A DNA stretch of 10,610 nt from a virus (Duplodnaviria > Heunggongvirae > Uroviricota > Caudoviricetes), in the IMG/VR virus record IMGVR_UViG_2778261697_000001, one strand, 5' to 3'. This document shows, in pieces, positions 1 through 10,610 of the stretch. The translations under genes and the position numbers were made by a program. Each line of letters starts with the position of its first letter. Position 1 is the stretch's first letter. The notes under the pieces are model-generated. The model worked only from the letters and a program-made list of their open reading frames with translations, was not told where the DNA came from and made no database searches.

Positions 1-132
1 GTCCATTTCCGCGCAGACGATGACGTCACTGCCCGGCTGTATGCGCGAGGTTACCGACTGCGGCCTGAGTTTTTTAAGTGACGTAAAATCGTGTTGAGGC
101 CAACGCCCATAATGCGGGCAGTTGCCCGGCAT
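1..132 (-). CDS. insB: IS1 InsB, 5' part only (continues beyond the window edge)
   Basis: Mirror image of 10479-10610. It reads [44 protein letters not shown] in the -1 frame relative to insA and is open to the window edge. Confidence 0.8.
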
Positions 133-326
133 CCAACGCCATTCATGGCCATATCAATGATTTTCTGGTGCGTACCGGGTTGAGAAGCGGTGTAAGTGAA
201 CTGCAGTTGCCATGTTTTACGGCAGTGAGAGCAGAGATAGCGCTGATGTCCGGCGGTGCTTTTGCCGTTACGCACCACCCCGTCAGTAGCTGAACAGGAG
301 GGACAGCTGATAGAAACAGAAGCCAC
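51..326 (-). CDS. insA: IS1 InsA (transposition inhibitor / N-terminal part of the InsAB' transposase)
   Basis: 91-aa [43 protein letters not shown]... with the characteristic Cys-rich zinc-finger start; identical to the ORF at 10285-10560. Confidence 0.95.
69..77 (-). promoter_or_regulatory. IS1 programmed -1 ribosomal frameshift motif (A6C slippery site) joining insA to insB'
   Basis: Plus strand reads GTTTTTTAA here, i.e. TTAAAAAAC on the coding strand near the 3' end of insA. That this motif drives InsAB' frameshifting is established IS1 biology. Confidence 0.7.
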
Positions 327-359
327 TGGAGCACCTCAAAAACACCATCATACACTAAA

Positions 360-692
360 TCAGTAAGTTGGCAGCATCACCGCTGGCATGAATTCATTTT
401 CAGTTCTGAATTTAATAATTATAGAGTCAGTAAAGTCCTTATCAATGGATTGTACGATACCTCTAACGGCGATTAATTTACCTTTTAACTGTTCATCGGT
501 AGCGACTTCATTTTCTTCATACTCTTTAAACAGCTGTCGAGCAGTAGTGTTGTAGATTTCTTTTTGCGGTGCCGCAGCTTCCGTATCGGATGAGTATGAA
601 GAATTAGAGCCTTTATCGTTATTGCCTGCAAAATATCCAATAATCACCAACCCGATGAAAATATATAAAATCCATTTTAATAATTTCTTCAT
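360..692 (-). CDS. Membrane-anchored OB-fold protein (tRNA_anti-like / BOF-like family), 3' end replaced by IS1 sequence
   Basis: N-terminal Lys-rich start followed by a hydrophobic helix (MKKLLKWILYIFIGLVIIGYFAG). C-terminal YEENEVATDEQLKGKLIAVRGIVQSI resembles the OB-fold tRNA_anti-like family, assigned from memory. The last 6 codons and the TGA stop (360-380) lie inside the IS1 terminal repeat, so the native C-terminus is missing. AT-rich, unlike the adjacent tail operon. Confidence 0.55.
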   Translation of the reverse strand: MKKLLKWILYIFIGLVIIGYFAGNNDKGSNSSYSSDTEAAAPQKEIYNTTARQLFKEYEENEVATDEQLKGKLIAVRGIVQSIDKDFTDSIIIKFRTENEFMPAVMLPTY

Positions 693-754
693 GTTATCAC
701 CTTAATGCTAATAATTTATATGGTTACAAATGGTAATGGCTACCACTACAAATT

Positions 755-2131
755 ATGGCATTACCAGTAAATATTACTACTGATAATAAATATGGGACTT
801 ATATGACGTGGAAAGACAGGCTTCAGGATGCGTCATTTCGCGGCGTACCGTTTAAAGTTGAAGAAGAAAGTGCGGGAACCGGTCGCCGTGTGGAAACACA
901 CGAATACCCGAACCGCGACAAGCCCTATACTGAAGATCTGGGAAAAGTCACTTTCCGCCCGTCCATCACGGCTTATGTGGTGGGAGATGACTGCTTTGAC
1001 CAGCGCGATCGCCTGATTGATGCGCTGAATAAACCCGGTCCCGGCACGCTTGTCCATCCGACATACGGTGAGCTGAAAGTCTGTGTTGACGGGGAAGTTC
1101 GGGTCAGCACATCGAAAAGTGAAGGGCGTATTGTCCGCTTTGACCTGAAGTTTGTCGAAGCGGGAGAACTCTCTTACCCCACATCAGGTGCGGCGACGGC
1201 GCAGACGCTGATGTCATCCTGTTTTGCACTGGATGACTGCATCAGTGGCAGCTTCAGCGGTTTCAGTATCGATGGCGTGGCGGATTTCGTGCAGAACGAC
1301 GTTATCGGTAATGCCGGCACAATGCTGGGGTATGTTTCTGATGCGATGAAAGTGGTGGATTCTGCTGTATCGGATGCCGCCAGGCTGTTGCAGGGAGATA
1401 TTTCGGTACTTCTGCCGCCGCCATCGTCAGGCAAAAATTTCGTTGAGCAGGTGCAGAAAATGTGGCGTACCGGGAAGCGCCTTTATGGTAACGCCAGCGA
1501 CCTGGTCACCATGATCAAAACGCTTTCCGGTGTCAGCCTCGGCAGCGATCTGCAACCGCGCGGTGTCTGGAAAACGGACAGTAAAACCACCGCCACGGCA
1601 ACGCAGCAGCGTAACGTGGTTGCCAGCACCCTTCGTACGACCGCAATCAGCGAAGCGGCGTATGCCGTCACCCGGCTGCCTGCACCAACAACTTCCGCAG
1701 TGATGCAGAATTCCGCAGTGGGGCAGTCAACAACCCCCGCGCAGAGCACCGGCTGGCCTTCCGTCACGCATCCGGCACTGAACAATGCACCGGCGGTGAA
1801 AAACACGGTTGACCTGCCAACGTGGGAAGAACTGACCGACATTCGCGACACACTGAATACGGCAATTGAGAAGGAGTTGTCCCGTACAACCAGTGATGCG
1901 CTGTTTCTGGCGCTGCGCCGGGTGAAAGCAGATCTGAATGCGGATATCAACACGCGCCTTGAACAGTCTGCACGGATCATTCAGCGCACACCGGATGAGG
2001 TTTTACCCGCGCTGGTGCTGGCGGCGACCTGGTTTGATAACGCGGCGCGTGACGCGGACATTATCCGGCGTAATGCCATTACGCATCCCGGCTTTGTGCC
2101 GGTGATCCCTCTGAAGGTGCCAGTGCAATGA
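755..2131 (+). CDS. Mu gpN-like DNA circularisation protein (tail/baseplate module)
   Basis: 458-aa ORF. The N-terminal WKDRLQDASFRGVPFKVEEESAGTGRRVETHEYPNRDKPYTEDLG block matches the DNA_circ_N-type domain of Mu N homologues as I recall it, followed by a Ser/Thr/Ala/Pro-rich linker. The first 16 codons are AT-rich with no Shine-Dalgarno sequence, so the real start may be the ATG at 803 (MTWKDRL...). The stop overlaps the next start (ATGA at 2128-2131). Confidence 0.75.
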   Translation: MALPVNITTDNKYGTYMTWKDRLQDASFRGVPFKVEEESAGTGRRVETHEYPNRDKPYTEDLGKVTFRPSITAYVVGDDCFDQRDRLIDALNKPGPGTLVHPTYGELKVCVDGEVRVSTSKSEGRIVRFDLKFVEAGELSYPTSGAATAQTLMSSCFALDDCISGSFSGFSIDGVADFVQNDVIGNAGTMLGYVSDAMKVVDSAVSDAARLLQGDISVLLPPPSSGKNFVEQVQKMWRTGKRLYGNASDLVTMIKTLSGVSLGSDLQPRGVWKTDSKTTATATQQRNVVASTLRTTAISEAAYAVTRLPAPTTSAVMQNSAVGQSTTPAQSTGWPSVTHPALNNAPAVKNTVDLPTWEELTDIRDTLNTAIEKELSRTTSDALFLALRRVKADLNADINTRLEQSARIIQRTPDEVLPALVLAATWFDNAARDADIIRRNAITHPGFVPVIPLKVPVQ

Positions 2132-9831: not shown

Positions 9832-9860
9832 ATATTAATGAACATTGCAAGGGCTCACAA
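9832..9860 (-). promoter_or_regulatory. Putative sigma70-type promoter for the GIY-YIG gene
   Basis: On the minus strand: -35 TTGTGA, 17-nt spacer, -10 TAATAT, about 30 nt upstream of the ATG at 9799. Pattern match only. Confidence 0.2.
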
Positions 9861-9990
9861 CTAGTAGTGTTGAGAAAGCCATCGGGAAAATGAGGCTAAC
9901 CCTTTGAATTTACATAGCGCAAAAAGATACCTTTCCTCATAATGTGAGCTAATTTTATGTTTCGTTTGATGATCGGGTCGGTCTCGAAAC

Positions 9991-10024
9991 CCGTAGCCAC
10001 GTCGTATGCAAGAACGTGCTACGG
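9991..10024 (-). repeat. Stem-loop B, copy 2 of the hairpin repeat, upstream of the GIY-YIG gene
   Basis: GTAG-c-CACGT-[cgtatgcaaga]-ACGTG-CTAC with two flanking C-G pairs. Homologous to stem-loop A; the outer stem carries a compensatory C-G to T-A change. Confidence 0.4.
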
Positions 10025-10284
10025 TTAGCTGGTGAAATGTCGATAGTGCGAGTGTTGAATAATTTCTAGCCGTTATTGATTTTACGTATTTTTGTATGAG
10101 ATGATTTGCATCTCCTGCCACCGACCATCTATGACTATACGTCACCATTTCTAGGGCTGCTATGTGCCAAGAGCGGTAATTGACAGAGAGCAGCCCTATC
10201 TCAGTGGCTTTATTTTTTTAGAGATTGCAGGTGATGCTGCCAACTTACTGATTTAGTGTATGATGGTGTTTTTGAGGTGCTCCA

Positions 10285-10560
10285 GTGGCTTCTGTTTCTA
10301 TCAGCTGTCCCTCCTGTTCAGCTACTGACGGGGTGGTGCGTAACGGCAAAAGCACCGCCGGACATCAGCGCTATCTCTGCTCTCACTGCCGTAAAACATG
10401 GCAACTGCAGTTCACTTACACCGCTTCTCAACCCGGTACGCACCAGAAAATCATTGATATGGCCATGAATGGCGTTGGATGCCGGGCAACTGCCCGCATT
10501 ATGGGCGTTGGCCTCAACACGATTTTACGTCACTTAAAAAACTCAGGCCGCAGTCGGTAA
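10285..10560 (+). CDS. insA: IS1 InsA
   Basis: 91-aa ORF identical to the copy at 51-326. Confidence 0.95.
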
Positions 10561-10610
10561 CCTCGCGCATACAGCCGGGCAGTGACGTCATCGTCTGCGC
10601 GGAAATGGAC
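10479..10610 (+). CDS. insB: IS1 InsB, 5' part only (continues beyond the window end)
   Basis: ATG at 10479 opens the frame [44 protein letters not shown], which matches the InsB N-terminus as I recall it and is open to the window edge. Confidence 0.8.
10534..10542 (+). promoter_or_regulatory. IS1 programmed -1 ribosomal frameshift motif (TTAAAAAAC)
   Basis: A6C slippery sequence near the 3' end of insA, in the overlap with the insB frame. Confidence 0.7.

Follow-up and report, generated by a model that had tools for sequence, protein, structure and literature searches.

The insertion sequence IS1 is 768 bp long, has imperfect terminal inverted repeats of about 23-30 bp and generates 8- or 9-bp duplications (PMC12428005); that definition is used here for length and terminal repeats, and both of the copies described below have the stated length and repeats. 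Two copies of one insertion sequence bracketing a cargo give the arrangement by which a composite transposon is recognised, and Tn1681 is an example in which the IS1 copies are inverted (PMC7554612). When transposition or recombination is intramolecular, the remaining element is left without direct repeats, as is typical of IS1 and Tn9 (PMC9330008). For the DNA that lies between the IS1 copies in the present case, the nearest known systems are the Shigella flexneri serotype-converting phages SfV, SfI, SfII and SfIV, which integrate at thrW and have a Mu-like tail, with e14-like remnants being grouped with these SfV-type phages.

The window analysed here (the whole stretch of 10,610 nucleotides) is 100% identical throughout to part of the chromosome of Escherichia coli EJN001 (NZ_CP086338.1, 929125-939734) and to EBJ001. 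These two complete chromosomes, deposited separately and apparently near-clonal, are the sole carriers of the structure. Positions 1-381 and 10230-10610 are exact reverse complements (381 nt, 100% complementary, by inverted-repeat search and by direct reading), and the inverted-repeat search places the two arms 9848 nt apart; a perfect repeat of this length inside 10.6 kb excludes a chance origin. The first-pass annotation had taken the arms to be halves of IS1 with their ends facing inwards and insA and insB reading outwards, and this was correct: both are the IRL half, IRL (GGTGATGCTGCCAACTTACTGAT) lying at window position 381 on the minus strand and 10230 on the plus strand, and each contains an outward-pointing 91-aa InsA ORF whose product matches Zn_ribbon_InsA and HTH_Tnp_IS1 (Pfam). 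That both copies are cut at exactly IS1 position 381 is an effect of the window or contig edge, not biology. The features of the window are:

1..381, minus strand: left IS1 arm, IS1 positions 381 to 1; IRL end at 381; InsA ORF 51-326 (minus)
382..692, minus strand: OB-fold (tRNA_anti-like) lipoprotein gene, its 3' end cut by the left IS1; ORF 360-692 continues into IS1
755..2131, plus strand: DNA circularization/tail protein (Mu gp43-like); Pfam DNA_circ_N, E 3e-34
2128..5800, plus strand: baseplate module (Pfam; SfV-group identity across window 418-5724), comprising a Mu gp44/P-like hub (2128-3207), gp45/V (3207-3755), gp46 (3752-4180), gp47/J (4167-5225) and gp48/YmfQ (5216-5800)
5804..6730, plus strand: glycine-rich tail fibre; Pfam Gly_rich_2
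6706..7146, plus strand: tail-fibre assembly protein; Pfam Caudo_TAP
7407..8474, minus strand: Acyl_transf_3 acyltransferase, in a low-GC (31-34%) accessory-gene block
9026..9850, minus strand: GIY-YIG protein; Pfam LEM-3_GIY-YIG; PADLOC PD-T4-3, E 1e-139
10152..10198, no strand assigned: 19-nt GC-rich hairpin (inverted repeat) beside a T/A run, immediately downstream of where SIR2 formerly ended
10210..10229, minus strand: final 20 nt of SIR2, a prophage gene truncated by the right IS1 (coordinates from strain a15)
10230..10610, plus strand: right IS1 arm, IS1 positions 1 to 381; IRL end at 10230; InsA ORF 10285-10560 (plus)

The cargo between the arms derives from an SfV-like, thrW-integrating prophage, of which it is the right-hand end: a remnant, not a complete prophage. 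An intact prophage, 99.9% identical and flanked by a 48-nt att repeat, is present at thrW in strains a15 and EH09-18-41, and it is the right end of this prophage that the window matches; only these intact relatives have the phage integrated at thrW, the fragment here lying elsewhere. The gene at 755..2131 shows 97.3% DNA identity to SfV, SfI, SfII and SfIV, and the OB-fold gene, which is intact at 447 nt in a15, has an annotated length of 333 nt in EJN001. When the chromosome records of EJN001 and EBJ001 were probed, the other parts of the prophage were absent, and so, in EJN001, was the rest of the SIR2 gene; in this strain thrW leads straight into the island, and neither a prophage nor an IS1 scar is present there. 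The acyltransferase gene sits where SfV-type phages carry O-antigen modification genes, and we infer such a role for it, while the GIY-YIG protein, the product of a predicted defence gene, matches the PD-T4-3 anti-phage model over its full length (positions 1-255 of 256, PADLOC). The hairpin at 10152..10198 looks terminator-like. We rejected the idea that the cargo acts like a tailocin, since sheath, tube and tape-measure genes are absent.

When the sequence is extended past the arms in EJN001, each runs into a full 768-bp IS1 and not into a truncated fragment (L001 coordinates 7614-8381 for the left copy and 18230-18997 for the right), and the two copies are identical to each other over all 768 bp. 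Both are intact, with IRL and IRR aligned, and differ by 2 nt from IS1A of K-12; the 91-aa InsA is undamaged, the A6C frameshift motif (TTAAAAAAC) is present at IS1 position 305, and the InsB frame is open, its DDE_Tnp_IS1 domain being matched at E 2e-78 (Pfam). The identity of the arms had been read as a hint of recent transposition, but that argument carries little weight: the 100% identity extends to a third IS1 in this genome, which has about 17 identical copies, so that identity is genome-wide and does not tie these two specifically to each other.

The junctions tell more about how the pair arose. Target duplications of 8-9 bp had been proposed as a check on each copy and on the outer ends of the pair, and none is present; indeed, no 8- or 9-bp direct repeat was found in any of six junction pairings (each copy, the outer pair, two post-inversion pairings and the inner pair). 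The sequences abutting the left IS1 differ (TGGGAGAGG vs GCTGGCATG), as do those abutting the right one (GAGATTGCA vs CAGACAGTG), and the outer ends of the pair (TGGGAGAGG vs CAGACAGTG) mismatch at seven of nine bases. The third IS1 of the same genome, serving as a control, has a clean 8-bp duplication (GGCGAAAC). The lack of a target duplication at either copy indicates that these are rearranged junctions and not fresh insertions, and leaves the identity of the elements as IS1 in no doubt.

The site of the left IS1 is an older point of IS1 insertion common to the lineage; it lies in the thrW island, downstream of a LacI-family regulator. The outer junction of this copy (ending in TTTGGGAGAGG directly against IRR) was found as one piece in 13 genomes, 11 of which are without this cargo, and so it cannot have been made by the arrival of an IS1-cargo-IS1 unit. 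In the two cargo-free genomes that were inspected, ESBL_DR28 and Iso00041, the inner side of the element leads to RpiB/oligogalacturonate lyase and onwards to yagP-pao-ecp; the same site without any IS1 is seen in ECCWS199. The right outer junction, where the second IS1 abuts rclC, is confined to EJN001 and EBJ001. In close structural relatives (of the ESBL_DR28 type) about 53 kb separates the two outer flanks, and a search with the concatenated flanks found no genome in which they are adjacent, the nearest being LR-29-1, where an IS1 deletion has occurred independently; further independent IS1-bounded deletions of the region are found in 23AR1101 and WP5-S17-ESBL-11.

About 53 kb that lies on the IRL side of the left IS1 in relatives (an island with type I restriction-modification and Ag43 genes, then pao, ecp, ykgMO, fdeC and ykgA) is replaced here by the prophage fragment and the second IS1. 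The absence of the deleted genes was judged from megablast place counts in chromosome records: neither the EJN001 nor the EBJ001 chromosome showed a second place for any of the probes (paoC, ecpC, fdeC, the oligogalacturonate-lyase gene ogl, hsdR, and int, terL and SIR2 of the prophage), compared with 7 places in a15. A reciprocal translocation or inversion was rejected on the same grounds, the missing chromosomal and prophage probes having no second place in either genome.

We consider it probable that the window is a 9.85-kb SfV-like prophage remnant, held between inverted IS1 copies, that came about through IS1 recombination and deletion and not by transposition as a unit. A first step would have joined the phage DNA to the IS1 resident at the LacI site; if the OB-fold gene of the phage contained an IS1A-type copy, homologous recombination between the two elements could have done this, the alternative being the formation of an IS1 cointegrate. 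In a second step, an IS1-bounded deletion may have taken out all that lay between the 3' end of SIR2 and the point where rclC ends; events of this kind leave IS copies that lack flanking target duplications. In most relatives the IS1 at the LacI site is of a different sequence variant, and in Iso00041 it is a mosaic, but in EJN001 it is of the strain's own IS1A type, which fits replacement by homologous recombination, the ancestral type in the EJN001 lineage being deduced from these relatives. No intermediate genome was found, none having a duplication-flanked IS1 that interrupts the OB-fold gene or lies at the 3' end of SIR2. Rearrangement of this sort is ordinary and already known; IS1-related large chromosomal deletions in E. 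coli and IS1-mediated adjacent deletions are reportedly the subject of work by Wan et al. (2023) and by Turlan & Chandler (1995), both of which are in the reference list of PMC12428005.

It is also conceivable, but unlikely, that integration was local: the phage would have used a secondary att site, thrW-like (ptwF-type) and lying between the LacI-site IS1 and yagP, and two simple IS1-adjacent deletions would have trimmed it afterwards, one anchored on the left at the resident IS1 and ending inside the OB-fold gene, the other reaching from the SIR2 3' end to rclC. Relative to proA and rclC, the fragment does point the same way as the thrW-integrated prophage, IS1-adjacent deletions are common in the region, and a degenerate 29-nt thrW 3' fragment lies just before yagP in ECCWS199; but no thrW-like sequence was detected from LacI to ykgR in ESBL_DR28 (one of the two inspected relatives that share the LacI-site IS1), and a prophage at that position was seen in no genome. 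Moreover, a deletion from the resident IS1 should have retained the resident variant, whereas the EJN001 copy is of the strain's general IS1A type.

The arrangement itself, two copies of one insertion sequence around a cargo, had prompted the suggestion of a compound element. For this to hold, a transposon like Tn1681 (IS1-cargo-IS1) would have arisen within the prophage and moved into the LacI-rclC region as a whole; IS1-adjacent deletions on the outer sides would then have erased the target duplication, and the donor prophage would have been lost by excision. We find this quite improbable, even though both IS1 copies are intact and identical, the EJN001 thrW site (lacking prophage or IS1 scar) is compatible with clean excision of the donor, and inverted IS1 pairs can form transposons, Tn1681 being an example (PMC7554612). 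It needs more events than IS1 recombination and deletion at the resident site, and the suggestion was not borne out: no pairing of ends shows a duplication, the left outer junction is identical in the 11 cargo-free genomes, and the outer flanks are widely separated in relatives. Nor was co-mobilisation seen in related genomes, the unit being known from one context, a single locus in the two near-clonal strains. It was absent from plasmids, where matches were to phage-like circles at 97% or less that lacked the junctions, and no named phage carrying it was found; the exact left inner junction had no matches in metagenome contigs, the exact right inner junction had none in GTDB representative genomes, and nothing relevant was found in the literature under the strain names. 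We regard as very improbable the further ideas that the IS1 pair is an unnamed, active compound transposon able to carry PD-T4-3 and the O-antigen-type acyltransferase to new sites, or that selection retained both genes during IS1 trimming (domestication).

An assembly artefact, in which collapsed IS1 repeats misjoined a prophage contig to the flanks or the identity of the arms is merely a repeat consensus, might be suspected from the cut at the same IS1 position on both sides, as in repeat-limited contigs, and from the many identical copies in the genome, but it can hardly be right, because two separately deposited complete chromosomes agree, with the same flank offsets, and the missing genes are consistently absent from both.

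Identical inverted repeats of 768 bp are a possible substrate for inversion through RecA-dependent recombination, and the two IS1 copies could invert the segment today by this route. The first-pass annotation had said as much, and stands as regards the substrate; inversion itself was not seen, the orientation of the segment relative to its flanks being the same in both complete genomes (n=2, near-clonal). Since both copies are intact, their joint transposition is likewise possible in principle, and likewise was not observed.

The locus is of little importance beyond this strain, except as a clear illustration that IS1 copies lacking target duplications are the scars of rearrangement and not the ends of compound transposons. 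It likewise shows that the thrW to ykg region of E. coli has been repeatedly remodelled by IS1; here the lineage lost about 53 kb, including the genes for the ECP pilus, pao and fdeC, and retained a prophage fragment with a defence gene. In genome scans, inverted pairs of identical insertion sequences are best scored as mobile only after checks for target duplications and for an empty site.

Compared with the known systems, the individual IS1 copies resemble K-12 IS1A in having 768 bp, the same IRL and IRR and the InsA plus InsAB' frameshift arrangement (with 2 nt different), but lack the 8-9-bp target duplication produced by simple insertion. As a pair, they are a look-alike only of transposons of the Tn1681/Tn9 type: here too two full IS1 copies bracket a cargo, and are inverted as in Tn1681, but there is no outer duplication and no empty site, the context is single and the left junction is older than the cargo. 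The cargo has the baseplate module of the SfV group (97.3% identical) and an intact relative at thrW with a 48-nt att repeat and accessory genes beside attR; it differs in that about a quarter of the phage is left, away from thrW, and in carrying the acyltransferase and PD-T4-3 genes, not gtr genes. As a whole, the structure resembles IS1-bounded deletions and replacements in E. coli (by IS1-mediated adjacent deletion, cointegration or recombination between IS1 copies), in which IS copies lack direct repeats (PMC9330008), tens of kb are lost beside a resident IS1 and the event recurs at the same locus in other strains; what sets this example apart from a plain deletion is the piece of foreign prophage trapped between two IS1 copies.

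Both IS1 copies that bound the segment (window 382-10229) are rearrangement junctions, and the left one reuses an old insertion site. The first 381 bases of the window are the exact reverse complement of the last 381 (repeat search and direct reads), and each arm encodes an InsA in which Pfam Zn_ribbon_InsA and HTH_Tnp_IS1 were matched:

1-381, minus strand: left arm, IRL half of IS1, with the IRL terminus at 381; InsA ORF at 51-326 (minus), 91 aa, reading outward
10230-10610, plus strand: right arm, IRL half of IS1, with the IRL terminus at 10230; InsA ORF at 10285-10560 (plus), 91 aa, reading outward

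This is the anatomy described in the first-pass annotation (IS1 arms, IRL inward and insA outward), and extension of the flanks, which it had called for, gave full-length elements. The whole window is matched at 100% identity by the complete E. coli chromosomes of EJN001 (NZ_CP086338.1, 929125-939734) and EBJ001, and in EJN001 each arm extends to a complete 768-bp IS1, the two copies being identical throughout and two positions away from K-12 IS1A. In both, InsA is intact, an A6C frameshift motif is present and the InsB frame is open (DDE_Tnp_IS1, E 2e-78). At window positions 1 and 10610 both copies are cut exactly at IS1 position 381; this symmetry suggests that the repeat fixed the ends of the window, as a contig or window boundary, and it is without biological significance.

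The identity of the copies had been taken to suggest recent transposition. The EJN001 chromosome carries about 17 IS1 copies, as estimated from place counts, and a third copy that we inspected is also 100% identical to the flanking pair, so the identity is genome-wide and does not tie these two specifically to each other. The proposal that the pair could mobilize the segment as a compound element fared no better, every testable defining feature of such a transposed element, beyond the bracketing itself, being absent. IS1 target duplications are of 8 or 9 bp (PMC12428005), and none was found in six pairings of the four junctions, post-inversion pairings included; a control IS1 elsewhere in the EJN001 genome has a clean 8-bp duplication, GGCGAAAC. 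In 13 genomes the left outer junction (...TTTGGGAGAGG followed directly by IRR) occurs in one piece. This junction lies downstream of a LacI-family regulator gene in the thrW island (the LacI site), and in ESBL_DR28 and Iso00041 the IS1 at this site leads, on its IRL side, into a different island of ~30 kb and then yagP, pao and ecp, while in ECCWS199 the site is empty; the left IS1 site is therefore older than the cargo. Only EJN001 and EBJ001 have the right outer junction, which lies 19 bp beyond the rclC stop. Adjacent outer flanks, the empty site for the pair, were found in no genome, and these flanks are ~53 kb apart in the ESBL_DR28-type arrangement. IS1-cargo-IS1 was found in no other context among 5,426 complete E. 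coli genomes or PLSDB plasmids; the exact left inner junction had no match in metagenome contigs, and the exact right inner junction none in GTDB representative genomes.

The interior occurs without IS1, at 99.8-99.9% identity, in strains a15, MY732, 36C_1, PBS4 and EH09-18-41, and was confirmed as part of a complete prophage in two of these (a15 and EH09-18-41). The a15 prophage sits at thrW, in the order proA, thrW, int, early, lysis, head and tail genes, the window segment, SIR2 and a 48-nt thrW repeat (attR), beyond which lie a P4-like island and then yagP, pao, ecp, ykgLMOR, fdeC, ykgA and rclC. In EJN001, thrW has no prophage: the left side reads proA, thrW, a galactan-utilization island, the LacI-family regulator, IS1 (leftward) and the segment, and the right side continues from the segment through IS1 (rightward) to rclC, rclB, rclA and rclR, the right IS1 breakpoint being 20 nt short of the end of the SIR2 gene. 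A composite probe (1.5 kb of cargo with 500-bp pieces of paoC, ecpC, fdeC, two island genes and prophage int, terL and SIR2) found one place each in the chromosomes of EJN001 and EBJ001, against seven in a15; neither chromosome was among the matches to head-tail and SIR2 queries, and neither was matched by the paoC, ecpC and fdeC probes. The chromosomal interval and the other parts of the prophage are thus absent, not relocated by reciprocal inversion. About three quarters of the prophage is missing, and we infer for both strains a chromosomal loss of ~53 kb that took with it the pao genes, ykgM/ykgO, fdeC and the operon of the E. coli common pilus.

How might this structure have arisen? Most likely, phage DNA would first have become linked to the IS1 resident at the LacI site; an IS1-bounded deletion would then have run from the 3' end of SIR2 to rclC. 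The region from the thrW island to rcl is a recurrent hotspot of IS1 deletion, independent IS1-bounded deletions being present in LR-29-1, 23AR1101 and WP5-S17-ESBL-11. The types are LacI...IS1...ykgA' (chromosome stretch L005, 4551-5318), prophage-IS1-fdeC (stretch L010, 25722-26489) and LacI-IS1B-rclA' (NZ_CM132250.1). Direct repeats are missing from elements left by intramolecular transposition, and equally from those left when IS copies recombine with each other; this has been described for IS1/Tn9 (PMC9330008). In 8 of 11 other genomes the LacI-site IS1, over the IRR-proximal 400 bp covered by the junction query, has the mismatch level of a different variant; the only one of the eight compared in full, ESBL_DR28 (L012, 2043-2810), has 16 differences from the EJN001 copy. 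The Iso00041 element (L013, 20401-21168) is a mosaic with eight differences from that copy, having variant bases only at 82-127 and being of K-12 IS1A type elsewhere. Such differences among strains are evidence that IS1 copies have recombined or undergone conversion, and since the LacI-site copy in EJN001 (L001, 7614-8381) is of the strain's own IS1A type, homologous recombination is favoured for the joining step. Another possible route is local integration of the phage at a secondary thrW-like att site and its trimming by two adjacent deletions, but no such site was detected in ESBL_DR28, which has the LacI-site IS1.

By established knowledge, identical 768-bp inverted repeats are able to recombine, and the potential for inversion of the segment noted at first pass is sound, the copies being full length, inverted and identical. 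In EJN001 and EBJ001, the two available and apparently near-clonal genomes, the segment points the same way with respect to its flanks, at a 388-bp offset from the LacI flank in each, a result compatible with flipping or with its absence. The window sequence would be the same in either orientation, and only reads or assemblies that cross an entire IS1 copy and reach the flank beyond it distinguish them.

The cargo itself comprises the following:

from 382, at the left IS1: OB-fold lipoprotein gene, truncated, cut by the left IS1
within 382-10229: Mu-like DNA-circularization protein
within 382-10229: baseplate proteins gp44 to gp48
5804-6730, plus strand: glycine-rich tail fibre, with a separate assembly protein within 382-10229
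within 7200-8474, minus strand: Acyl_transf_3 acyltransferase, in a low-GC (31-34%) block
9026-9850, minus strand: GIY-YIG protein, full-length match to the PADLOC PD-T4-3 model (E 1e-139)

In its baseplate block the segment shares 97.3% identity with SfV, SfI, SfII and SfIV, phages that convert the serotype of Shigella flexneri. The tail-fibre ORF is uninterrupted (308 aa), and its division in RefSeq into a partial stfP pseudogene and a separate glycine-rich protein is an annotation split, not a real disruption. The low-GC block occupies the position of the O-antigen modification genes in SfV-type phages, and its acyltransferase is possibly a serotype-modifying accessory gene, still intact. 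With the PD-T4-3 match, the IS1-trimmed remnant has retained a predicted defence gene; its neighbour in the intact prophage, a SIR2 protein of 936 aa whose SIR2 domain is ThsA-like, has been deleted from the remnant. A 19-nt hairpin (10152-10198) with a T/A run beside it resembles a terminator, that of the SIR2 gene formerly present. ORFs 8701-8967 (plus) and 9861-10148 (minus), in two stretches without assigned function (8475-9025 and 9851-10229), had no Pfam match.

Of the initial reading, then, the full-length, inverted IS1 copies and their potential as an inversion substrate stand, and co-mobilization and recent transposition are not supported. The flanking elements are members of IS1, and their arrangement recalls Tn1681, in which inverted IS1 copies surround a heat-stable toxin gene (PMC7554612), but it does not belong with compound transposons of that type. 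It matches instead the well-known class of IS-bounded deletion or replacement scars and prophage remnants, and as an IS1-bounded remnant it is ordinary, of a kind known before.
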